64,000 nt of DNA, taken from an uncultured Chitinophagaceae bacterium. Lineage in GTDB: Bacteria > Bacteroidota > Bacteroidia > Chitinophagales > Chitinophagaceae. The notes under the pieces are model-generated. The model had not been told where the DNA came from. It saw nothing but the letters and a program-made list of their open reading frames with translations, and did not search any database. The translations under genes and the position numbers were made by a program. Of the stretch, positions 2,707 through 62,105 are shown in pieces. The stretch spans positions 1,729 through 65,728 of the forward strand of contig CAISDV010000171.1 in NCBI GenBank assembly GCA_903884185.1, given 5' to 3'. How positions within the stretch are numbered: position 1 is the first letter of the stretch; each line of letters begins with the position of its first letter.

Positions 2707-2769
2707 TTTCACGCCCGTCCGAATGGCTTAGCCGGGCGGGCAAAGACGCAAAGGAGCCAAGGCGCAAAG
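2707..2769. repeat. word-hairpin arm, family d (TTCACGCAAAGACGCAAAGG type), interrupted
   Basis: tttcacg + insert + caaagacgcaaaggagccaaggcgcaaag; degenerate partner arm downstream (about 2781-2810). Confidence 0.6.
2714..2740. mobile_element. 27-nt GC-rich palindromic mini-element nested in an intergenic word-hairpin
   Basis: CCCGTCCGAATGGCTTAGCCGGGCGGG splits tttcacg|caaagacgcaaagg; the uninterrupted string tttcacgcaaagacgc occurs at 57623. Confidence 0.6.
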
Positions 2770-2850: not shown

Positions 2851-3990
2851 TTATAAACGTTGCTTTAATTGTGGTATCATGGCAGCCTTCCATGAAAGGA
2901 AAGTATCTGCCAGGATATATTTGCGGGCCTCACTTACCAGCCAGAGATAAAAAGAAAGGTTGTGTATGCTGGCTATTTGCAAGCCGAGGATCTCATCGGC
3001 AACAAATAAATGCCGCAGGTAAGCTTTGCTATAATAATTGCTTGTTTCGCAAGGGAAACCTTCATCGATCACGGAAATATCGGTTGCCCATTTTTTATTT
3101 CTTATGTTGATGATACCCTGCGAAGTGAAGAGCATTCCGTTTCTTCCATTACGCGTTGGCATCACACAATCAAACATGTCAACACCGAGGCTGATGGCTT
3201 CGAGGATATTCCACGGAGTACCCACTCCCATTAAATAACGCGGTTTATCCGCAGGCAAAATATCACAACACAATTCAGTGAACTCGTACATCATTTCTTC
3301 AGGCTCTCCCACACTCAATCCGCCAATAGCATTGCCCGCAGCGTGTTTGGAGGCAACATATTCAGAAGAAACTGTGCGAAGGTCTTTATAAATGCCGCCC
3401 TGAACAATTGGGAAAAGATTTTGCGTATGGCCATATTTGCCCTCGGTCTCATTCAGCCTTTCTATACATGCGTCCAACCAGCGATGCGTTAACTCCATGC
3501 TTTGCTTTACATATTTGTATTCGCTGGGATGAGGCGGGCATTCATCAAATGCCATAATAATATCGGCACCAATACTTCTTTGAATGTCCATCACTTTCGC
3601 CGGACTGAATAAATGCCTGCTGCCATCAATATGAGATTGAAACATCACACCTTCTTCAGCGATCTTCCTGTTGGCGGACAAAGAAAATACCTGGTAACCG
3701 CCGCTATCGGTGAGTATGGGCCTGTCCCAACCCATGAATTTATGCAGGCCACCACAGGTTTTCAGTACTTCTATACCCGGCCGCAAATAAAGATGATAGG
3801 TATTGCCAAGAATGATCTGCGCTTTTATTTCTTCCTTCAGTTGCTGTTGTGTTACAGCTTTTACGCTACCCACAGTGCCCACAGGCATAAAGATCGGGGT
3901 CAATATCTCGCCATGATCCGTGCTGATCTTGCCCGCCCTTGCTTTCGTATGGGTATTTGTTGATTCTAATTGAAAACTTAATGCTGCCAT
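2851..3990 (-). CDS. tgt: tRNA-guanine transglycosylase (queuine tRNA-ribosyltransferase)
   Basis: Track ORF 2851..4086 trimmed to ATG at 3990 (MAALSFQLESTNTHTKARAGKISTDHGEILTPIFMPVGT); motifs TDSGGYQVFSL, LFPIVQGG, GLSVGEP. The upstream extension crosses a low-complexity repeat. Confidence 0.9.
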   Translation of the reverse strand: MAALSFQLESTNTHTKARAGKISTDHGEILTPIFMPVGTVGSVKAVTQQQLKEEIKAQIILGNTYHLYLRPGIEVLKTCGGLHKFMGWDRPILTDSGGYQVFSLSANRKIAEEGVMFQSHIDGSRHLFSPAKVMDIQRSIGADIIMAFDECPPHPSEYKYVKQSMELTHRWLDACIERLNETEGKYGHTQNLFPIVQGGIYKDLRTVSSEYVASKHAAGNAIGGLSVGEPEEMMYEFTELCCDILPADKPRYLMGVGTPWNILEAISLGVDMFDCVMPTRNGRNGMLFTSQGIINIRNKKWATDISVIDEGFPCETSNYYSKAYLRHLFVADEILGLQIASIHNLSFYLWLVSEARKYILADTFLSWKAAMIPQLKQRL

Positions 3991-4061
3991 GAATAAGTAC
4001 TGATGGTAAAAGAAAGCAAATTTACATACAAGAAAGCAAAGCATGGTATGATACCGGATAT

Positions 4062-4094
4062 ACATCGTACATCCCACATCTAACATCTAACATC
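4062..4094. repeat. 7-nt periodic stutter tract (ACATCNN)
   Basis: acatcgt acatccc acatcta acatcta acatc, in the divergent tgt / GT2 promoter gap. Confidence 0.8.
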
Positions 4095-8140: not shown

Positions 8141-8216
8141 TCACCGCAGAGACGCAGAGACAGGGAGAAACGGGGAGATATCTCGGCGAACCTCCCCGTC
8201 TCCCCGCCTCCCCGGT
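8141..8216. repeat. word-hairpin, family a (CACCGCAGAGACGCAGAG / CTCCCCGCCTCCCC type)
   Basis: tcaccgcagagacgcagagacagggagaaacggggag ... cctccccgtctccccgcctccccggt; between the M1 peptidase start and the rsmI stop. Confidence 0.8.
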
Positions 8217-24713: not shown

Positions 24714-25552
24714 CTTACAGAGATTGAAATGCCCGGTACATCATAAAAACCTGTAAATGATCTCGGTGGTGTTTCATGAATCCACCTGATCTCTTTATAG
24801 TTTAAATAAGTGTAAATTTTTTCCGCATAAGCATTTCCAATTAAATGCGGGAGGTTTTTATCTCCGTTGGCCAAACCCTTTAGCGGTATCAACTCAAATG
24901 AAACAAAAACACCTCCTTCAGGAAATTCTATATTTTTAGACCTAGTAGAAAAGATATTCTTTCGTTTCAGTTGATGGCTTGGCAGAATATTATCTTCAAA
25001 CAAAAGATCTTCACCAGGTAATTGTGTCACCGGGTTTTTATCAAATAGCCTGATCCTTAGTAAGTAGGTTGCTTTCCGGGGGCTTTCGAGTTTAAATCTT
25101 ATATCATCAATATAGCCCTTAACCTTAGTTTCATTAGGGATATAAACAGCATCTTGAATATCAGGTTCCAAAATTTCCCAAAAATTTTCTTTGCCATCAT
25201 CATGCCCCAATAATATTTTTGCTGTTGTGTTCCTTCTTGATCTAACAGAGACTGCATCCAGGCTTGTATATGCTTCTTTTAATTCTACTTGCAATTGATT
25301 GGTCAGTTCAGTGATCACAATCGTTACAGGCTGGTATCCAAGTGCCGAAACCTTGATAGAATCACCGGTAATTTTCTTTATACGGAACACACCAATCGAG
25401 TCGCTATTGTCGCCTATCCTGGAATGATAATAACCAATAGCCGCGAAGGCTATTGGTTTTTGCTTAGCATCTAAAATTCTACCACTCAAGATTGCCTGAG
25501 CAATTAGAATATTAGGTAAAAAGATTAAGATGAGTATAATAAACAATTTCAT
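24707..25552 (-). CDS. secreted CarboxypepD_reg-like domain protein, paralog A
   Basis: 281 aa; signal peptide + [18 protein letters not shown]... domain; tandem paralog of 25632..26477; its stop overlaps the purC stop by 7 nt (convergent). Confidence 0.7.
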
Positions 25553-25631: not shown

Positions 25632-26477
25632 TTAATAGCTTATAGTGATTGATATATTAGGCACACCATATAAATTAGTCATGGGCGACCTTGGATAATC
25701 AACCACCCATTCAATTTCTTTATAATTCAGATACAAGTAAGGCTTTTCGGCATAAGCATTTCCAACTAAACGTGGAATGGTCTTAAAGTCATTGATAAAG
25801 CCCGTCTGTGGTAACAACTCGAATGATACAAAAACACCTTCTTCGGGATATTCAATGTTTTTTGCCCTTATCGAAAAAATATTATTTCGTTTTAGTTGGC
25901 TACTCGGCACAATATTATCCTCAAATAACAGGTCTTCACCTGGAAGCTGATTTTTGGGGTTTTTATAAAATAGTCCGATCCTTAACAAGTAATTGGTCTT
26001 CCTGGGATTTTCCAACTTGAATCCTATTTCATCAATATAGCCACTGATCTTTTTTTCATTAGGTATATAAATTCCTTTTTGAATATTATCCTCCAAATTG
26101 ACTAAAAAATTTTCCCTGCTATTAAGGTGCCCTAATAAGATAGTACCGGTTGTTTTTCTTCTCGATCTTACAGAGACTGCATCCAGGCTTGTATATGCTT
26201 CTTTTAATTCTACTTGCAATTGATTGGTTATTTCAGTGATCCCAATCGTTACAGGCTGGTATCCAAGCGCCGAAACTTTGATAGAATCACCGGCAATTTT
26301 CTTTATATGGAACACACCAATCGAGTCGCTATTGTCGCCTATCCTGGAATGATAATAACCAATAGCCGCGAAGGCTATTGGTTTTTGTTTTGCATCTACA
26401 ATTCTACCACTCAGCAATGTCTGAGCAATTAGAAAACCTGGAAAAGAAAAGAAAATCAGTGCAATAAATCTTATCAT
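25632..26477 (-). CDS. secreted CarboxypepD_reg-like domain protein, paralog B
   Basis: 281 aa, same length and architecture as paralog A. Confidence 0.7.
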   Translation of the reverse strand: MIRFIALIFFSFPGFLIAQTLLSGRIVDAKQKPIAFAAIGYYHSRIGDNSDSIGVFHIKKIAGDSIKVSALGYQPVTIGITEITNQLQVELKEAYTSLDAVSVRSRRKTTGTILLGHLNSRENFLVNLEDNIQKGIYIPNEKKISGYIDEIGFKLENPRKTNYLLRIGLFYKNPKNQLPGEDLLFEDNIVPSSQLKRNNIFSIRAKNIEYPEEGVFVSFELLPQTGFINDFKTIPRLVGNAYAEKPYLYLNYKEIEWVVDYPRSPMTNLYGVPNISITISY

Positions 26478-26960: not shown

Positions 26961-28109
26961 TTACTCTTTCGTCTCTCCCAGTTTAGGGCGCAGCCTTTTC
27001 GACTTACTGAAAATATTCTGTCCTTTATCAATTCCGCTGCGAATGGCTTTCTGTCGTTCCAATGGCATAGCTATGGTGTTTTTGCATTCAATACTGCAAC
27101 AACCATCATATTGTTTTGCACAATCTTCGCATTGAATAAAGAGTAAATGGCAGCCATGATTTTTACAGTTGGTATGAGTGTCGCACGACTTACCGCATTG
27201 GTGGCATTTAGCGATCACATCTTCTGTAATGCGTTCACCCAGCCGTTCATCAAACACAAAATTCTTCCCGATGAATTTGCTTGGAGCTTCGTTCTCTTTT
27301 ATTTCGCGGGCATAATTAATGATGCCCCCCTCGAGATGAAATACATTTTTAAATCCTTTATGCAGCATGTAGGCGCTGGCCTTTTCACAACGGATACCAC
27401 CTGTGCAGTACATGATGATATTGTTGTCCTCTTTGCCCTTCATCATATCCGCAGCCATGGGCAACTGTTCACGAAAAGTATCTGAAGGGATCTCCACTGC
27501 ATTTTCAAAATGTCCCACTTCATATTCATAATGATTGCGCATGTCTATCACCACTGTGCCGGGATCTTTCATCAGTTCATTCATCTTCAGCGCATTCACA
27601 TATTTTCCTTTTTGAAACATATTGAAGGAAGGGTCCCTGATACCATCTGCCACAATTTTATCCCGCACTTTAATTCGTAATACCCAGAAACTCTTACCCT
27701 GCCCGACTGAATCGTTCAGGCGGGCCTGCCCGACTGGATCGTTCAGGCGGGCCTGCCCGACTGGATCGTTCAGGCGGGCCTGCCCGACTGGGTCGTTCAG
27801 GCGGGCACCATCATCCACTGCAATATTCAATCGCAAACCATTCAATGGTTCAATAGAATATAAAAATGTTTTGAATGATTCAAATTGAGAAGCAGGTACA
27901 CTCACCTGTGCATTGATGCCTTCCTTTGCCACATAGATCCTTCCGTATACTTTGAGGGCATTCAAATGCAGGTATAACTGATCACGAAAAGCTTTGGGAT
28001 CCTCTACAGAAAAGTAATGATAGAAACTAAGCGTTACGCGCTGCTCATTTTCTTCCATGAGGCGTTGCTTGAGTTCTAAGTTATTGATGCGGTTGTGTAA
28101 TACTGCCAT
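26961..28109 (-). CDS. trhO: rhodanese-domain tRNA uridine(34) hydroxylase (UPF0176/YceA family) carrying a 36-aa repeat insertion
   Basis: Trimmed to ATG at 28109 ([33 protein letters not shown]); rhodanese active site [11 protein letters not shown], Cys-rich C-terminus; contains ARLNDPVGQ x4. Confidence 0.85.
27699..27806. repeat. 4 x 27-bp tandem repeat (CTGCCCGACTGGATCGTTCAGGCGGGC) in frame within trhO
   Basis: Units 27699-27725, 27726-27752, 27753-27779, 27780-27806 differ only at the two central positions (tgAAtc, tgGAtc, tgGAtc, tgGGtc). Confidence 0.95.
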
Positions 28110-28125
28110 GATCGCTGCAAAAATA

Positions 28126-30501
28126 CTAATTACCCCGCCCAGAAGCAAACAAAGGCAATGAAAACCTTACCCCGCTGATGGTAGAACCATTTGGCTGGAA
28201 TCCCTGGATAAAGTCTAACCTCACAATTTTAAAGATATTTTCAAGCGAGATAAACGCTTCATAATAATGCGAGTTCTTATCAATATATAAAGCATTGCCA
28301 CCGAAAACAAGGAACCAGTTGAGCCTTCTGAACCCGGGTATCTTGTTTGTGAGCAAACCATTCAAATGATATTCTGCATGTGCCGTGGTATAAACATTCG
28401 CGATATTACTGTATTGATAATAAGGCAACAATTGAAAACTGCTCAGGTATTGGCTGGCAAATACAGTTTGGTTACCGAGATAATGCTGGTAATCAACATT
28501 CGAAACATTTTTTGCATTTAAGAAACCACCCACTTCCAGGCGATAATTGAAACGGCCGCCTAATTTAAAGTTCAGGTCGTCCGACATACCCAAATGCCAT
28601 TTGGTAAAATCAGCATTACTTCCAAAAGGCCCGTTCAACCCTTCTGTAACAGATAGATTGAATGTGGGGTATTTTGAACGGATGCCGATCTTCCTGTCGG
28701 GGAACTCAATATATTTTCCACCCGGCCTCCAGGTAATATTTTCAGTGATGGCGAATTCTTTATTGGAAATGATGCTGTTAGCCAGTGGTACCCTGTCCTG
28801 GTATTGTGCAGATATGGAAGCAGTAAATCCATCACCCAAACTCTTTGAATAACCCAGGCGAAGAAAATTGGCTTCATAAATTTTAAGGTAATCGCGTTTG
28901 TAATAAAAAGTGTTTTCAAGTCCGCTGATAGGGTCTGCATTATTTACCTGGAACACTTTTCGTCCGCCGGCAAAATTAAAACTGCTGTTATATTTTGTAC
29001 CAAAATTATACCGTCCCGCAACAGAAGCATTCAGGTGCGTGTTACCAAAACCATAACGAAGAGTGGGTGTAATAGATAACGATTTTCTTCCCTCCCATCG
29101 TTTAAAATAAGTGCCTGAAAAATTGGTCACATAGCCTTCAATATTATTATAACTATCAAAACTGGTCAACAATGGGTTGATAGAAATATTGCTTTTATTT
29201 TTTTCTGAATTGAAATTTTGTCCAAACAAAAGGAGTTTGGGTATGGTTACTTTATTTCTGCGCCTGTCGAGCGAATCCATGTACCGCGGCGATTTCCTTA
29301 CCTGTTCCAGGCTATCTTTTTTCACATAATCCCTGGCCTCAGCAGGAAGCAGTGGTATTGGGCGAATGCTGTCCCAATAAGCCAGTGTTCTTTTATTAGA
29401 GCTGTCCAAAAATTTGATGATCGTATTCCCAAAGAATTTCTTTTCATACACAGGCTCAATATTGTACTTATCATACACCTGCACAAAATTTCCAAAGAAA
29501 TCAAAATTGAATATTTTACCTGCGGGATAAATGACCTGCTGTTTCATCACCCAAACATTTTTTAAAGGCACGTATAATTGCTCAATTGTAAGGGTATCGA
29601 GGAATTGCATTTGCTGTTCCTTCAATGCCGTGAGCTGCACACTTTGCAGGCGCCACTCATCTTCAACAATATTTATATAGCCTGTAAATAATGGTTCATA
29701 TTTTCTTCTCGGTATCACTTTAATACGGCTTACTTCCCTTCCATTCTCAAAAAATGTTCCTTCAAAATGATATTTATAATAATTGAGTGCATTATTAGAG
29801 ATGGGTGAAATAAAACCGCGCGGGTTAAGTCCCTGTCCTATTGAAATATTATTCTCATAAAAAGAAAAGATCTGCGGAACGCTGAAACCAAACCCACCGG
29901 TTTGCCCGCTTACTTTGGTGGATATCACTTCCACCTTTTTTTTATTCTTTCCGTCAACCGAGTAATTGGCCAATCCTTCAGAGAGAAAGATCATCTTGCG
30001 TTTGCTGGTATCGCCATCTTCAAAATCCACTGTTTCGCCCAAAAATCTTTTGGGATAATTGCGGAGTTGTAATTGCCCTTTCAGATACACTTCACACTGA
30101 AATTGTTTCAATTCATTCAAATGCTCTTCGCGTTTTTTTATTGCCTGGCGGATGATCTCATAAGCCGGGTCTTCGCCACCGCTTTTTACTGTTACATTTT
30201 GCAGGTTATATTGCTGTTCCTGTAATTGAAAATCAATTTGTGAATCTGTTTTGCCTACGGTAATCTTTTTTTCTTCGGTGGCGTAACCTACATGCTGGCA
30301 AACAAGGGTATGTTCGCCGGGTTCAATGGGCAAACTATATTGGCCCTTGCTGTTGGCGGTGGTGCCTCGTGCCGTTCCTTTAATTAAAACCGATGCAAAG
30401 GGAAGTGGTTTTCCTTTTCCGTCTTTGACAATACCGGTGATGGTAGCAGCCCAGATAAATTGGGGGATGATGAATAACAGGCAGGATAAAGTTCTTTTCA
30501 T
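28126..30501 (-). CDS. CarboxypepD_reg-like + DUF5686-type large outer-membrane-like protein
   Basis: 791 aa; signal peptide, [37 protein letters not shown] motif, long beta-rich C-terminal region. Confidence 0.75.
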
Positions 30502-31640: not shown

Positions 31641-33936
31641 CTGTTGTACTGTTGACATTATTTTCACAAGATTGTTATTTCACCGCGGAGACAGGGAGGC
31701 GGGGAGGTTCGCAGAGTTAAAATTCAGTAAATCAATACTCTGGTTCAAATTATATACAGTTGATGCTTCTTTACACCAGCCCCTCGATATGAGTAAAGTG
31801 GCGTACATTGAAATACTCGACAATAATAACAAACCCGTGATACAGGCCAAGATTGCTTTGAAGAATGGGGATGGCAATGGTTCCTTACCTCTCCCTGTTT
31901 CTATCGGCTCAGGAAAATATAAACTGCGCGCTTATACCAACTGGATGAAGAATTTTGGTGCAGATCATTTCTTTGAAAAAATTATTACTATCGTCAATAC
32001 ACAAAAAGCAAACGAAACTATTTCTTCTCCTAAACCGGATCAGTATGATATCCAGTTCTTCCCAGAGGGAGGTAACCTCGTAAATGGTATCCAGAGCAAA
32101 GTGGCTTTTAAAGCTACAGATCAAACCGGTAAGGGAGTTGCGTTTACAGGCTCCTTGTTAGATGAACAGGATAATGTCATCATTAAATCTTTCCAGCCTC
32201 TCAAATTTGGTATGGGTAATTTTAGTTTTACTCCAACCAGCGGGCATCATTATAAAGCCATAATAGATATCGCAGGAAAAAACAAGATCACGAAAGAATT
32301 GCCTTCTGTATATGCTGAAGGATATGTAATGAAAGTAACTACAGGTCAAAGTATCATTACTGTTACCGTTCAGACAAACATTAGTACAGCTGCCGAATTA
32401 TACCTTTTTGTCAATACTGGTCAGTCGGCTAAGTTCTCCTGGGCTGGCTTTATGCGAAATGGTATAGCGCATTTTTTGATAACAAAAGACAAACTCGGAG
32501 ATGGTATTTCACATTTTACTGTTTTTAACAGCGAACGCCAACCGGTATGTGAACGTTTATATTTTAAAGTTCCACAGGAATACTTGCAGATGTATGCATC
32601 TACTGACAATCCAGGTTATGCTCCAAGAAAAAAAGTAACATTGAACATTCTCGCTGCAACGCAAGCCGGGAAAACAAGCGAAGCAGATATGTCGATGTCT
32701 GTTTACAGATTAGACTCATTACAATCACCAGATGAAAATAATATCAGCAGTTACTTGTGGCTGAATTCAGAACTAGCCGGTACTATTGAATCGCCACAAT
32801 ATTATTTTGATAGTACCAGTATCCCTGAAGCAGCAGATAATCTAATGCTCACGCAAGGATGGAGAAGGTTTCGCTGGGAAGATGTTCTTCAGAATAAAAA
32901 ACCTTCCTTCACTTATGCTCCTGAATACAACGGGCATATCATTACCGGGAAAGTGATCGATACCCGCACAGGCTCCACCGCTGAAAATATAGAGAGTTAT
33001 CTTTCAGTTCCGGGAGTACGGACACAATTCTCACCGTCGCGCAGTGATGCATCCGGACAGGTGAAATTTGAAATGAAAGAAATGTATGGCTCATCTGAGA
33101 TCATTGTACAGACCAATTCGCGTGTCGACAGCTTGTATCGTGTAGACATTGCAAATCCGTTCTTTGAAAGCTATTCATCGCGCAAATTGCCATCGTTTCA
33201 TTTTACTTCGGATAACGCCACAAATTTTCTTACACATAGCATTGGCTCACAGGTACAGAATATTTACCTGGGCGACATGTTACAGCAATTCGGCATTCCT
33301 GCTTTAGATACCAATCCTTTGCAGGTACCTCGCGAATCAAGGTACTTACTGGACAACTATGTTCGCTTTGTTACTTTGGAAGAAGTACTACGCGAATATG
33401 TTTTGTCTGTGAATGTCCGCAAGAGAGAAGATAAATTTCATGTGTTGCTGTACGACCTTGCCAACAAAGTGTATTTTGAAAATGATGGATTGGTATTGCT
33501 GGATGGCGTGCCTGTTTTTGACCAGGACAAATTCATGAAATTCGATCCGTTAAAGATCAGGAAGGTGGAAGTGGTGGATAACAAGTATTTCCTTGGTGGT
33601 AATTATTTTGATGGAATATTAAATTGCTCAACGTACAAAGGAAACCTCGCAGATTTTGAGCTTGACCCGCATGCAACCGTGATAGACTATGATGGGTTAC
33701 AATTGCAAAGAGAATTTTATTCACCTCAATACGCCACAGAACAACAGTTAAACAGCCATCTCCCCGATTTCAGGAATGTGTTGTACTGGTCTCCGAATAT
33801 ACATACCAATACTTTGGGTAAGCAAACTACCAGTTTCTATACTTCCGATGTAAAGGGTAAATATGCAGTTGTATTGCAAGGGATTGCTGCCGATGGAAAA
33901 AGCGGGAGTAATGTGGTTACATTTAATGTGAAGTAA
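31618..33936 (+). CDS. large MG2/alpha-2-macroglobulin-like protein homolog, native 5' end apparently replaced by a repeat (possible pseudogene or neo-N-terminus)
   Basis: 772 aa; family-like sequence starts at ILWFKLYTVDASLHQPLDMSKVAYIEILD...YKLRAYTNWMKNFG; residues 20-36 are translated from a half hairpin repeat (31676-33); no signal peptide; alternative ATG at 31789. Confidence 0.55.
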   Translation: MISSINLNCCTVDIIFTRLLFHRGDREAGRFAELKFSKSILWFKLYTVDASLHQPLDMSKVAYIEILDNNNKPVIQAKIALKNGDGNGSLPLPVSIGSGKYKLRAYTNWMKNFGADHFFEKIITIVNTQKANETISSPKPDQYDIQFFPEGGNLVNGIQSKVAFKATDQTGKGVAFTGSLLDEQDNVIIKSFQPLKFGMGNFSFTPTSGHHYKAIIDIAGKNKITKELPSVYAEGYVMKVTTGQSIITVTVQTNISTAAELYLFVNTGQSAKFSWAGFMRNGIAHFLITKDKLGDGISHFTVFNSERQPVCERLYFKVPQEYLQMYASTDNPGYAPRKKVTLNILAATQAGKTSEADMSMSVYRLDSLQSPDENNISSYLWLNSELAGTIESPQYYFDSTSIPEAADNLMLTQGWRRFRWEDVLQNKKPSFTYAPEYNGHIITGKVIDTRTGSTAENIESYLSVPGVRTQFSPSRSDASGQVKFEMKEMYGSSEIIVQTNSRVDSLYRVDIANPFFESYSSRKLPSFHFTSDNATNFLTHSIGSQVQNIYLGDMLQQFGIPALDTNPLQVPRESRYLLDNYVRFVTLEEVLREYVLSVNVRKREDKFHVLLYDLANKVYFENDGLVLLDGVPVFDQDKFMKFDPLKIRKVEVVDNKYFLGGNYFDGILNCSTYKGNLADFELDPHATVIDYDGLQLQREFYSPQYATEQQLNSHLPDFRNVLYWSPNIHTNTLGKQTTSFYTSDVKGKYAVVLQGIAADGKSGSNVVTFNVK
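31676..31733. repeat. half word-hairpin, family a, inverted orientation
   Basis: tatttcaccgcggagacagggaggcggggaggttcgcagagttaaaattcagtaaatc matches the reverse complement of 39481-39540 at roughly 53 of 57 aligned positions (hand alignment). Confidence 0.8.
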
Positions 33937-33940
33937 AAAT

Positions 33941-34034
33941 TCACCGCAGAGTCGCAGAGACGGGGAGGTCCGCAGAGATAATTAACCATACTAAAGGCAC
34001 TCTGCGAAACTCCCCGCCTCCCTGTCTCCCCGGT
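33941..34034. repeat. word-hairpin, family a, complete
   Basis: tcaccgcagagtcgcagagacggggaggtccgcagag ... ctctgcgaaactccccgcctccctgtctccccggt; starts 5 nt after the stop at 33936. Confidence 0.85.
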
Positions 34035-36931: not shown

Positions 36932-36994
36932 GCCACAGAAACACAGAGACACAGAGGGTTGAGCCATTCTTCTGTGTTTCTGTGCCTCTGTGGC
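36932..36994. repeat. word-hairpin, family b (GCCACAGAAACACAGAGGCACAG type)
   Basis: gccacagaaacacagagacacagaggg ... ttctgtgtttctgtgcctctgtggc. Confidence 0.85.
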
Positions 36995-37552: not shown

Positions 37553-38704
37553 TTATTTCAGCATCTCTGTTAATATTCCTACTTCATCATTTGTATTAAA
37601 CGCATGCAGCACAATCCTCAACCTTTCCTTTCCTTTTGGAACAGTAGGATATAAAATAGGCCGCACATCCAGGTTATTCTCCTGTAATTTTTCTGCCAGC
37701 GTTTTTACATTTTCATTTCCTGGAATGATCACCACCTGTATCGCCGTTTGAGAAGATAATTTTTCATAAGAGATATTGGCTGATTGAAATTGCTGTATTA
37801 ATCCCTGCAATTGCTTTCTCTCCGCCTGCATGGTTGGAAATAATTTGTAAGCTTCACTGATCATCGCAACCGCATGTGGGGGCAGTGAAGTAGAATACAC
37901 AAAGCTTCTTGAAAAATTAATCAGATAATCGCGTAAAGTAGCGCTACCCAATATTACAGCACCATGGCAGCCACAGGCTTTTCCAAAACTATGCATCCTT
38001 GCAAATACTTTATTCTGCAAACCAAGATGCTGTACCAGGCCTTCTCCCCTTTCACCTATCACTCCAGTAGCATGCGCTTCATCAACCACCAGATGAGCAC
38101 TGTATTTTTCACAAAGAGCAACCAGTTCGTTCAGCGGACAAAGATCACCATCCATGCTAAACACGGTTTCTGTTACTACAATTATATTTCCTTTACTATC
38201 TCTTGTATGTTGTAATCTTTTTGCAAGTGCCTCCATATCATTATGCGCAAAAGAGAACGATTCGGCAAAAGATAAACGGATTCCATCACGGATAGATGCA
38301 TGGCATAAAGCATCGTATAAAATAGTATCGCCTCTTTGTGCAATGGCTGCGATCGATCCAATATTAGCATCATAACCGGAATTGAAGATGAGCGCAGTAT
38401 CTGATTGATGGAAAGAAGCGATTTGTTTTTCAGTTTGTTCTATCAATTGATAATTACCTGCGAGTAAACGAGAGCCTGTAGAACCGGTTGCCCCCGCCCC
38501 GCTACGCAGGTCGGGCAGGAGTTGCCCCTGCCCGACTATGTCATTCAGGCGGGGGTTACTTTCCGTTAATTTATTGTCATGTACGATACCGAGATAGTCA
38601 TTTGAGCAGAAGTCGATTTTACCTTCGGGTAGTTTTAGTTGACGAAAAGAGCCCTCTTTTTTTCGTTCATCCAGCTTTTTATATAAGAAATCGTCAGCGT
38701 ACAT
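37553..38704 (-). CDS. bioF: 8-amino-7-oxononanoate synthase family PLP enzyme with repeat-derived insertion
   Basis: 383 aa; FCSNDYLG, GSTGSRLLAGN, DEAHATG, SFGKACG (PLP lysine); about 18 extra residues PRLNDIVGQG..LPDLRSGAG between the first two motifs. Confidence 0.8.
   Translation of the reverse strand: MYADDFLYKKLDERKKEGSFRQLKLPEGKIDFCSNDYLGIVHDNKLTESNPRLNDIVGQGQLLPDLRSGAGATGSTGSRLLAGNYQLIEQTEKQIASFHQSDTALIFNSGYDANIGSIAAIAQRGDTILYDALCHASIRDGIRLSFAESFSFAHNDMEALAKRLQHTRDSKGNIIVVTETVFSMDGDLCPLNELVALCEKYSAHLVVDEAHATGVIGERGEGLVQHLGLQNKVFARMHSFGKACGCHGAVILGSATLRDYLINFSRSFVYSTSLPPHAVAMISEAYKLFPTMQAERKQLQGLIQQFQSANISYEKLSSQTAIQVVIIPGNENVKTLAEKLQENNLDVRPILYPTVPKGKERLRIVLHAFNTNDEVGILTEMLK
38493..38519. 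mobile_element. 27-nt GC-rich palindromic mini-element, inverted partner, inside bioF
   Basis: CCCGCCCCGCTACGCAGGTCGGGCAGG; separated by 7 nt from the copy at 38527; GTCGGGCAGG/CCTGCCCGAC form a perfect 10-bp inverted repeat. Confidence 0.5.
38527..38553. mobile_element. 27-nt GC-rich palindromic mini-element, same subtype and reading frame as trhO units, inside bioF
   Basis: CCTGCCCGACTATGTCATTCAGGCGGG; minus-strand translation (P)RLNDIVGQ versus ARLNDPVGQ in trhO. Confidence 0.55.
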
Positions 38705-38744: not shown

Positions 38745-38776
38745 TTACCGGTAACTGGTAACCGGCAACTGGTAAC
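38745..38776. repeat. stutter tract, family f (CCGGTAACTGGTAAC)
   Basis: ttaccggtaactggtaaccggcaactggtaac, in the divergent bioF / miaE gap. Confidence 0.8.
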
Positions 38777-39572: not shown

Positions 39573-40607
39573 TCAGCAACCCTTCAATGCTCCTTCAAAA
39601 TATTTTTTTTCTTCTTTCATATCTAAAAATGCATTAACCTTTTCAAGAGCCATCGTCTTTTCAAGATAACCTGCCAGGAATTTTTTATGCTGTGAGGATT
39701 GGGAATTAAACGGCTTATGGCTTACTGCCAGGTTGATCTCGGCAATATGTTTCATCAATTCTCTTGTCTCTTCATTCATACATGCCGCTGTAAATTTCTC
39801 CCACACATATTCTGTTGCAGCATAATTGGGATGCACCAGGTCTTCTGCATAAAAACGGTAATCACGCAGATCATCAATCACTAATTCGTATGCAGGAAAA
39901 TAATACGCCCGCTCATATTTTTCAATAAGCTGGTGTACCGCCTGTATCAATACCGCTTTGCTGCGGTTGTTTTCTATTACCCCTTCGCGTAGGTGGCGTA
40001 CCGGGCTAATTGTGAATATGATTGAAATCTTGGGATTGAATCCCGCCCGGCCATGCCGTTCGGACGGGGATTGAAGATTTTGCACCATTGCATCCAAAAC
40101 ACTGAATGTTTCTTCAGCACTTAGTAATTTCTTTTCAAACCAATCTGAGGGTGCTTTGTGGTTATTGGCTGCAACCGAACCCGGTTGTACATTGGCAGCT
40201 TTAGATGTGAGTGTATAAGTCCATGAGGAACCGAGTGTGATCATCAGGTAATCGGCCTCTTTTAAATATTGATGTGTTTCAGCAATAGAATCATTTATTT
40301 TTTTGAGTGATTCTTCAACACTCATTCCCGAAAAACGGCTATGGTGTTTCCAGCTATGCCAGGATTCGTTAAGACAGAACAGATCGTTATTGCTATAAGT
40401 TTTATTATTTATGCAATCACCCACTGCTTCTGCTACACTCACGGGGTTGAATAATATTCCGTGCGAATTTTCCAGTACATTGAATTTATGCTTGCGCAGT
40501 TTTGCGCCAATGTTTTCTGTAAAGCAGGAACCGATCAACAGCATTTTATGCTTGTGGTTGATAGGCTGATGCAATTTTTTAATATCAAATTCGAAATGAA
40601 ATTTCAT
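39573..40607 (-). CDS. GSCFA domain protein with 9-aa repeat-derived insertion
   Basis: 344 aa; LLIGSCFTENIG motif, ISPVRHL motif; PSERHGRAG encoded by the 27-nt element. Confidence 0.8.
   Translation of the reverse strand: MKFHFEFDIKKLHQPINHKHKMLLIGSCFTENIGAKLRKHKFNVLENSHGILFNPVSVAEAVGDCINNKTYSNNDLFCLNESWHSWKHHSRFSGMSVEESLKKINDSIAETHQYLKEADYLMITLGSSWTYTLTSKAANVQPGSVAANNHKAPSDWFEKKLLSAEETFSVLDAMVQNLQSPSERHGRAGFNPKISIIFTISPVRHLREGVIENNRSKAVLIQAVHQLIEKYERAYYFPAYELVIDDLRDYRFYAEDLVHPNYAATEYVWEKFTAACMNEETRELMKHIAEINLAVSHKPFNSQSSQHKKFLAGYLEKTMALEKVNAFLDMKEEKKYFEGALKGC
40042..40068. mobile_element. 27-nt GC-rich palindromic mini-element inside GSCFA gene
   Basis: CCCGCCCGGCCATGCCGTTCGGACGGG; its reverse complement matches 2714-2740 at 24 of 27 positions. 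Confidence 0.6.
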
Positions 40608-45662: not shown

Positions 45663-45762
45663 CGGTTCGGACAGTTTAGGGGGACATTAAAATTCAGTGG
45701 GCAAAGGTAAAGAAATTAGGGGGAAAGGCAATGTTGATAATAAAGAGGGGCGTTTTTAAGAA

Positions 45763-45794
45763 GTTGCTGGTTACCGGTTACTGGTTGCCAGTTA
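45763..45794. repeat. stutter tract, family f (reverse orientation)
   Basis: gttgctggttaccggttactggttgccagtta, about 100 nt upstream of the glycogen-synthase-like gene. Confidence 0.8.
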
Positions 45795-57161: not shown

Positions 57162-57167
57162 ATTATT

Positions 57168-57241
57168 GCCACAGAAACACAGAGGCACAGAAGAGAGAAG
57201 GAATGATTGAACTATTTTCTGTGTTTCTGTGCCTCTGTGGC
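57168..57241. repeat. word-hairpin, family b
   Basis: gccacagaaacacagaggcacagaag ... ttctgtgtttctgtgcctctgtggc; starts 7 nt after the ALDH stop. Confidence 0.85.
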
Positions 57242-57291
57242 AGCCTTTTAAAATTGCAAAAAACATTTTATAATTAATAAAAAATACAAAT

Positions 57292-61501: not shown

Positions 61502-61527
61502 GCCACAGAGGCACAGAAACACAGAGG
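61502..61527. repeat. family b arm, left half of split hairpin
   Basis: gccacagaggcacagaaacacagagg, perfect reverse complement of 62080-62105. Confidence 0.9.
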
Positions 61528-62067: not shown

Positions 62068-62079
62068 CTGTTTACAATC

Positions 62080-62105
62080 CCTCTGTGTTTCTGTGCCTCT
62101 GTGGC
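62080..62105. repeat. family b arm, right half of split hairpin
   Basis: cctctgtgtttctgtgcctctgtggc; identical to the right arms at 36970-94 and 57217-41. Confidence 0.9.

Follow-up and report, generated by a model that had tools for sequence, protein, structure and literature searches.

In-frame tandem copies of a dispersed 27-nt GC-rich element in the tRNA-modification gene trhO of an uncultured Chitinophagaceae bacterium

The gene trhO, which encodes a UPF0176-family tRNA uridine(34) hydroxylase, lies on the minus strand of a 64,000-nt stretch of DNA from an uncultured Chitinophagaceae bacterium (assembly GCA_903884185.1, contig CAISDV010000171.1, positions 1,729 to 65,728; hereafter the window). 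It is interrupted in frame by an array of four 27-nt units whose sequence recurs at unrelated positions in many other genomes. We consider it likely that the array represents four copies of a dispersed, non-autonomous, GC-rich mini-element with the form of an imperfect hairpin, which inserts seamlessly and which in this gene was amplified by slippage or unequal exchange.

The four units occupy window positions 27699-27806 without intervening nucleotides, are joined head-to-tail and vary only at two central positions. Tandem Repeats Finder returns the same array (period 27, 4.0 copies, 97% matches, score 204), and a search tolerating three mismatches finds exactly the four trhO array copies against none expected from 100 shuffles. 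With 70% GC the array stands far above both the remaining gene and the whole window, each of which has 41%. The minus-strand open reading frame (ORF) stays open across the array and gains 36 residues, which read ARLNDPVGQ three times and ARLNDSVGQ once. These features had been pointed out in a preliminary description made from the letters and the ORFs alone, and direct reading of the sequence, the repeat search and the ORF all bear them out. The ORF retains the Pfam domains UPF0176_N, Rhodanese and Rhodanese_C, with the CTGGIRCEK motif of the TrhO rhodanese domain intact. Rfam gave no family match for the whole 64-kb window at the gathering threshold, and for the array, at E up to 10, only chance miRNA-like matches.

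The position of the insert within the protein differs from the one first proposed, which was the interval between the UPF0176 region and the rhodanese domain. The Pfam match to UPF0176_N runs across the insert, which therefore splits the N-terminal domain at the turn that joins the final two of its predicted beta-strands, rather than lengthening an inter-domain linker. In an AlphaFold2 model of the protein (mean predicted local distance difference test score, pLDDT, 70.5), the core of which matches the Bacillus subtilis TrhO-tRNA structure 9j5o and the Legionella structure 4f67, insert residues 99-140 score below 50 in pLDDT and fall between predicted strands 95-99 and 144-148. Disorder is predicted for the 36-residue loop, and since this is so and the catalytic rhodanese part is untouched, the insert-bearing TrhO probably still works as an enzyme.

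Position frequencies among exact matches, obtained in the scan described below, define the consensus of this unit, which we call type 1, as CCCGCCTGAAYGAYnnAGTCGGGCAGG. Conservation is 93-98% at the C preceding and the G following the 25-mer used for the search, neither of which was fixed by it; the three central positions vary, and non-coding copies have near-random flanks. Read in the sense orientation, the unit has a single frame that is always free of stops and yields the hydrophilic peptide ARLNDxVGQ; one of the other two frames always contains TGA, and the last contains TGA in the common AAT-GAC variant. A sister element, type 2, has the length and the architecture of type 1, each stem counting nine positions of which one is mismatched and one is a G·T pair; the two types differ at about 8 positions. 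Such sister subfamilies (type 2 and CTGGAT variants) co-occur with type 1 in the same genomes.

A scan of species representatives (GTDB r232, one genome per species) with CCGCCTGAAYGAYNNNGTCGGGCAG produced at least 128 exact matches in at least 120 loci. The flanks of these copies are unrelated from copy to copy, and the same ~1 Mb of sequence holds 22 more copies that depart from the 27-mer by 1-4 mismatches, where shuffles give none. The 27-mer is a stand-alone dispersed element, exact copies of which are present in many genomes and are mostly non-coding. Cultured carriers among the matches listed fall into three classes of Bacteroidota (Chitinophagia, Flavobacteriia and Bacteroidia) and include the genera Pinibacter, Terrimonas, Maribacter, Zunongwangia, Arenibacter, Zeaxanthinibacter, Cerina, Maribellus, Tangfeifania and Perlabentimonas. 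Nor is the element restricted to the source genome or, apparently, to Bacteroidota: by assignments that depend on the binning of metagenome-assembled genomes (MAGs), carriers belong to at least six further phyla, with Scalindua, Brocadiaceae and other Planctomycetota, Neomarinimicrobiota, Ignavibacteria, Chlorobiaceae, Elusimicrobia, Patescibacteria/Saccharibacteria and one archaeon among them. Two matches, in Paracoccaceae and Faecalibacterium, lack the flanking C and G and look like chance coding matches. In two MAGs with four copies each, one of Rikenellaceae (L006) and one of Mariniphaga (L081), the 27-mer lies within repeated blocks of at least ~100 nt with shared flanks, and composite repeats containing the 27-mer have therefore themselves been multiplied there.

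Long ORFs contain 39 of the 128 listed copies and about 70% are non-coding; genomes being mostly coding, the copies are strongly depleted from genes. The coding copies comprise 26 in sense and 13 in antisense orientation, and nearly all of the former read A/P/T-RLNDxVGQ. Non-coding copies in unidirectional contexts have no such bias relative to their neighbours (24 in the same orientation, 20 in the opposite one), and lie equally near to 3' and 5' gene ends, with no preference for the 3' end. Since orientation toward neighbouring genes is unbiased outside coding regions, the sense bias within them is best read as a filter imposed by translation. Sense coding copies also share a context, [G/A]A[T/A] before the unit and GG-N-AAA after it, which places D, N, K or E before ARLNDxVGQ and G-K behind it and which is absent at non-coding copies. 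Ten host ORFs examined with Pfam proved to be normal enzymes and repeat proteins, among them GH2, alpha-L-fucosidase, FAD oxidoreductase (DAO), GH43, BNR/sortilin, TPR, WD40 and penicillin amidase proteins. Within the same ten, in-frame ARLNDxVGQ peptides occur in the DNA polymerase III alpha subunit (DnaE) of a Zambryskibacteria MAG, within an NTPase domain (L044, 5349-8000, minus strand), and in TsaD of a Paceibacterota MAG (L028, 943-2043, minus strand). Both dnaE and tsaD are genes expected to be essential, and genomes of the Candidate Phyla Radiation (CPR) are reduced.

Empty trhO sites in orthologues read GATGATGAY followed directly by GGNAAA, and filled sites read the same with 27 nt added, the only ambiguity being a G of 1-2 nt that could count as target duplication. 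From this comparison, and from the exactly nine extra residues (SPSERHGRA) that distinguish a type-2-bearing GSCFA-family protein of the window from all 13 aligned homologues, insertion in trhO and in the GSCFA gene is seamless. Copies that sit in the loop of another hairpin, recognised by complementary flanks, make up 17 of 118 (~14%) where 6.6 would be expected, and type 1 is nested in type-2 loops at four loci (L045, L058, L066, L067). The central triplet shares no mutual information with the flanks beyond multiple-testing noise, which bears on a possible origin of the loop from the target. A recurrent host hairpin of the form xxxxx-GAGCGC-[27-mer]-G(T/C)AGTCGA-x'x'x'x'x' was seen at L010, L018, L056, L059 and L098, as well as at L027 and L095; its outer stem varies between genomes with complementarity kept, and it might be a composite element or, alternatively, a loop favoured as a target.

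How the trhO insertion is distributed bears on its age. Uninterrupted DDD-GKSFW is found in 110 of the 120 closest TrhO sequences, and the proteins of B. subtilis and Legionella, with solved structures, lack the insert as well. The supposition that the insert would be missing from orthologues consequently holds for most of them and fails for nine, ~75% identical to the window TrhO, that carry one A[R/H]LND[P/A]VGQ at the exact insertion point; the TrhO sequence P0001 has three units at this point. The DNA of single-copy inserts ranges from identity with the consensus (L129) to nine differences (L004), and flanking trhO codons that specify the same residue show ~45% synonymous differences. Among 19 changes in orthologous single-copy inserts 16 are synonymous, against 27% expected (p ~3e-7), as are 11 of 13 unique derived states (p ~3e-5). 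Although these counts lack phylogenetic independence, their direction is clear, and the excess of synonymous changes places the nonapeptide of TrhO under purifying selection. Because nine orthologues share the site and the changes among them are nearly all synonymous, the insert is older than the source genome, and its peptide is selected, not merely tolerated. In a neighbour-joining tree the insert-bearing orthologues fall into at least three to four groups; the window TrhO is closer to its nearest insert-free orthologue (80%) than to its nearest insert-bearing one (75%), and the same is true of P0006 (88% versus 81%). The tree and these identities favour at least three to four events, and the patchy distribution, together with several near-consensus copies, suggests repeated gains at one favoured site. 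Sliding identity around the insert has no local rise of the kind that would indicate recent recombination.

Amplification of the unit can be followed more directly. The metagenome contig L001 (k141_63161), from an independent ENA assembly, aligns with 11,038 nt of the window without a mismatch and with a single gap of 27 nt, its trhO array having three units where that of the window has four. Copy number in the array therefore changes faster than point mutations accumulate. The four-unit protein is separately recorded (P0246, 365 aa, on 3 contigs). Units of one array share their loop variant, in trhO and elsewhere, as expected of local duplication; the CCA loop so shared is rare among the dispersed copies (2 of 118). 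A metagenome scan for at least three consecutive units identified eight contigs with arrays of 3 to ~8 units, mostly non-coding, and homologous metagenome contigs differ in unit number (L133, L135, L136). Amplification is thus a property of the family as a whole, and it is the in-frame occurrence inside a housekeeping enzyme that is unusual. A word-indexed protein search with a five-unit peptide retrieved five short spurious ORFs only. Two contigs with arrays of 6-8 units (L132, L134) mix the consensus with CTGGATGAC and CTGGATAAC variants, which translate as ARLDDKVGQ and ARLDNKVGQ, and sub-variants therefore arise and spread inside arrays.

The further copies reported in the window are all present where they had been placed (Table 1). 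In bioF the two units lie tail-to-tail with a 7-nt spacer and fold jointly into a hairpin of ~-23 kcal/mol (z -4.7). The linker that holds them varies from 26 to 60 aa among 120 orthologues, and from this variation it seems to absorb various repeat insertions; PRLNDxVGQ itself is restricted, within these 120, to the window protein P0126 and to P0127, and in several others the linker holds apparent translations of different short repeats. QPATSNQQ and SLVIGHWSL are peptides of this kind, resembling short-repeat translations in the hypervariable linker of several orthologues. Heptamer repeats GGTAACY/GGTTACY lie just upstream of the bioF start (38747-38776) and again at 45762-45794, and GCAAAGRC octamers (3.8 copies, 2740-2769) directly abut the intergenic type-2 unit.

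Table 1. Copies of the 27-nt element in the window and the genes that hold them.
Feature	Position	Strand	Remarks
Array of four type-1 units	27699-27806	-	coding order: GCCCGCCTGAACGACCCAGTCGGGCAG, two GATCCA units, one GATTCA unit
trhO (UPF0176 / tRNA uridine(34) hydroxylase) ORF	26961-28148	-	likely start ATG at 28109
Type-1 unit, single, sense in bioF	38527-38553	-	encodes PRLNDIVGQ; exact family-consensus match
Divergent 27-nt unit CCCGCCCCGCTACGCAGGTCGGGCAGG, antisense to bioF	38493-38519	+	translated LPDLRSGAG
bioF (8-amino-7-oxononanoate synthase)	37553-38704	-	elements in SNDYLG...GSTGSR linker
Type-2 sister element CCCGTCCGAACGGCATGGCCGGGCGGG, sense in GSCFA-family gene	40042-40068	-	peptide SPSERHGRA
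GSCFA-family gene hosting type-2 insertion	39573-40607	-	
Intergenic type-2 element CCCGTCCGAATGGCTTAGCCGGGCGGG	2714-2740	+	between minus-strand ORFs 1336-2436 and 2851-4086

We propose the following scenario. The 27-nt elements would insert seamlessly anywhere in the genome, and somewhat more readily into the loops of existing hairpins. Copies would persist chiefly in non-coding DNA, and in genes only where nine codons can be read and are tolerated, so that sense copies would yield ARLNDxVGQ, mostly at D/N-G-K turns. One such unit would have entered the turn of TrhO between DDD and GKSFW, which connects the final two beta-strands predicted for the N-terminal domain, and in the source lineage replication slippage or unequal exchange between direct repeats would have raised the number from one to three or four. 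We infer present or past mobility of a non-autonomous 27-mer, with slippage or unequal exchange as the likely route of its amplification. The transposases of IS200/IS605 elements and those associated with repetitive extragenic palindromic (REP) sequences, the REP-associated tyrosine transposases (RAYTs), which are HUH/Y1 enzymes, recognise imperfect hairpins, leave no duplication on insertion and are precise in excision. Movement of the 27-mer would presumably require an enzyme acting in trans, for which, by analogy, a single-strand transposase of the HUH/Y1 type is a candidate.

Several observations weigh against this scenario. The self-complementary ends noticed in the preliminary description do form a hairpin, but a single type-1 unit makes a weak and imperfect one (-5 to -7 kcal/mol, z -1.3 to -2.7). 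When all ORFs of the 120 loci, each up to 8 kb long, were compared with one another, no linked transposase emerged, the largest shared protein cluster covering 6 of 120 loci, and near-identical strains displayed no empty/filled polymorphism, varying in copy number alone. As to vehicles, the plasmids of PLSDB gave chance matches in GC-rich genomes only, and one contig of the IMG/VR viral collection contains the 27-mer; occurrence outside Bacteroidota remains apparent to the extent that it depends on MAG binning. Finally, nearly all trhO inserts have the CCA or CCG (proline) loop that so few dispersed copies possess, which suggests either one old trhO origin with precise losses or selection for proline after insertion. 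Given this shared rare loop, the trhO copy is no proof of current mobility.

Other explanations need to be considered alongside. Identity at 25 of 27 positions across classes and phyla is unusual for REP-type repeats, the arms can be read as the inverted repeat CCTGnnnGAC-nnn-GTCnnnCAGG, which has the layout of a dimer-binding site, and the copies come without a linked transposase. All of this might be expected if the 27-mer were a functional nucleic-acid signal, the binding or processing site of a conserved DNA- or RNA-binding protein, that is kept by selection and of which the coding copies are by-products. We regard this as unlikely, considering that the copies have no preferred position or orientation relative to genes, are found inside unrelated enzymes and nested in other hairpins, form tandem arrays that differ in copy number and match nothing in Rfam; in the trhO orthologues, moreover, synonymous sites decay as the peptide is kept, so that conservation there is not of the DNA motif. 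Alternatively, the units might be written by a templated process, with a reverse transcriptase or repair polymerase that would copy a short, conserved template into breaks or into the loops of hairpins, instead of being cut or copied by transposition. Such a process could account for a sequence that stays the same in distant phyla despite its variable central triplet, for seamless insertion without target duplication, and for spacer-free head-to-tail joins, as repeated copying of one template would give. However, neither Rfam nor the ORFs of the 120 loci supplied a candidate template RNA or gene, a loop variant common to an array fits local duplication better than repeated fresh synthesis, and sister subfamilies in the same genomes are what diverging element lineages would produce. 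We rate templated writing as very unlikely.

The remaining two explanations concern the trhO array alone. Nine orthologues with the same nonapeptide at the same site, under purifying selection, could be taken to mean that the repeat is a native, lineage-specific linker of TrhO with its own function, its likeness to other loci being coincidental. We strongly disfavour this and give it almost no weight, for the insert is missing in 110 of the 120 closest orthologues and in the B. subtilis and Legionella proteins, the identical 27-nt DNA recurs outside coding sequence and within unrelated proteins of different phyla, and the insert has 70% GC in a 41% GC gene and lies in a region predicted to be disordered. 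Nor do we find it credible that the four-copy array is an assembly artefact, although short-read assemblers can miscount the units of a short tandem repeat and the two assemblies disagree (three versus four): at 81 and 108 nt the two arrays fall below the k=141 that the contig name k141_63161 implies, the four-unit protein was independently recorded on its three contigs, and comparable arrays exist in eight unrelated metagenome contigs.

Returning to a dispersed element that inserts seamlessly, one may carry the proposal further, into a form that we regard as possible but would not call probable. The 27-mer and its sisters would then be an ultra-small mobile DNA, among the smallest known, that crosses phyla, having moved horizontally among the FCB group (Fibrobacteres-Chlorobi-Bacteroidetes), anammox Planctomycetota, Elusimicrobia and CPR by trans-acting machinery, inserting even into dnaE, tsaD and trhO and being repeatedly kept as a selected protein loop. 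If this were true, the family would, generally and to this day, supply bacterial enzymes with peptide insertions and with nonapeptide repeats able to expand. If the 27-mer is mobile, it offers a tractable case both for how mobile DNA of minimal size, with no coding capacity, moves and crosses phylum boundaries, and for the origin of new protein loops and repeats. For annotation, the 27-nt units create spurious small ORFs and unexpected indels in alignments of orthologues.

The window contains other duplications and short repeats. Near trhO, self-matches of L001 point to a tandem gene duplication, two adjacent paralogous CarbopepD_reg_2-type genes, ~81% identical, at window positions 24789-25509 and 25714-26434. 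Intergenic inverted arrays of the type (CACAGARR)x3 ... (YYTCTGTG)x3, with an 8-nt period and GCCAC/GTGGC at the edges, occur at 36932-36994, at 57167-57243, and at 61502-61527 with 62079-62105, the last pair ~580 nt apart; this family is unrelated to the 27-mer. A similar element of 8-nt period, of the GGGGAG/CTCCCC type (CGCAGAGA x2 ... CCTCCCCG x3) is present in both orientations at 8143-8216, 31682-31712 and 34008-34034.

Lastly, the 27-mer needs to be placed among known repeats. Small palindromic repeats are usually species-specific and extragenic, and in-frame palindromes in protein-coding genes are known mainly from Rickettsia, where the Rickettsia palindromic elements (RPEs), of about 100-150 bp, are confined. 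In the account of Ogata et al. (2000), as cited in PMC3733652, RPEs are dispersed palindromic repeats that lie in frame in apparently functional genes as well as in non-coding DNA. The 27-mer likewise occurs in frame in intact genes (trhO, bioF, the GSCFA gene, and genes for GH2, DnaE and TsaD) and in non-coding DNA, and in both cases the insertions add surface peptide segments and no transposase of the element's own is known. It differs in its 27-nt length, its Bacteroidota host, its cross-phylum occurrence and its direct tandem arrays, and is not a member of the RPE family, a separation that is drawn by size and host. The comparison with a selfish RPE-like palindrome made at the outset therefore stands for the behaviour and for the dispersal with unrelated flanks, and not for family membership; mobility is our inference.

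REP sequences and REPINs are imperfect palindromes of 20-40 nt that are mostly extragenic and sometimes intragenic in frame, in DnaE among other proteins (PMC3733652, PMC3116915, PMC6006769). A 27-nt imperfect palindrome with a weak hairpin and many dispersed copies, ~70% of them non-coding, resembles them, and the inverted dimers of REPs resemble the bioF pair. The RAYTs of Bacteroidetes include a subclass of their own, 2.6, whose hairpins are weak and atypical, and the repeats listed for it are species-specific (PMC6006769); the supplementary REP tables of that paper, subclass-2.6 repeats included, contain no match to the 27-mer. Neither of the tags GT[AG]G and CGTC that mark the described REP superfamilies (PMC3733652) is present in the 27-mer. 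Whereas REP families are specific to species or genera, the 27-mer is identical across classes and, by MAGs, phyla; spacer-free head-to-tail arrays are not the usual arrangement of REPs, and no RAYT was found among the neighbours of the 120 loci.

Also comparable are the small dispersed repeats (SDRs) of Nostoc and related cyanobacteria, which are reportedly 21-27 nt long, have hairpin potential, insert without target duplication, are nested and lie in some cases within genes, and whose families are said to be specific to strains or lineages. The 27-mer, which falls into the same 21-27 nt class, forms a hairpin, is inserted without duplication, is nested and occurs in genes, resembles them in these respects, and differs in belonging to another phylum and in being shared across phyla, the comparison being one of description. 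The mobile GC clusters of yeast mitochondria are GC-rich palindromes in an AT-rich genome, mostly intergenic, that are found also in VAR1/rps3, where they alter product size (PMC4464245); they are organellar, longer and without sequence relation to the 27-mer, and serve as an analogy only. A miniature inverted-repeat transposable element (70-300 bp, with terminal inverted repeats and target duplication) was considered and is ruled out by the 27-nt size and the lack of duplication, as is a CRISPR array, in which unique spacers of similar length would separate the units, by units that abut without spacers inside an ORF.

Keyword searches of the literature on in-frame or intragenic palindromes of Bacteroidota, on RAYT/REPIN systems and on SDRs returned no description of the 27-mer, with most subscription journals outside their scope and an earlier description therefore possible, and a full-text search for the DNA strings returned unrelated primer matches only. 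The 27-mer is a real element of the RPE/REP/SDR-like kind. Compared with these systems, what surprises us most is its letter-perfect conservation across classes and apparently phyla, the D/N-GK context of its coding copies, and the fact that a selfish-looking insert is now constrained protein, expandable by nine codons at a time.

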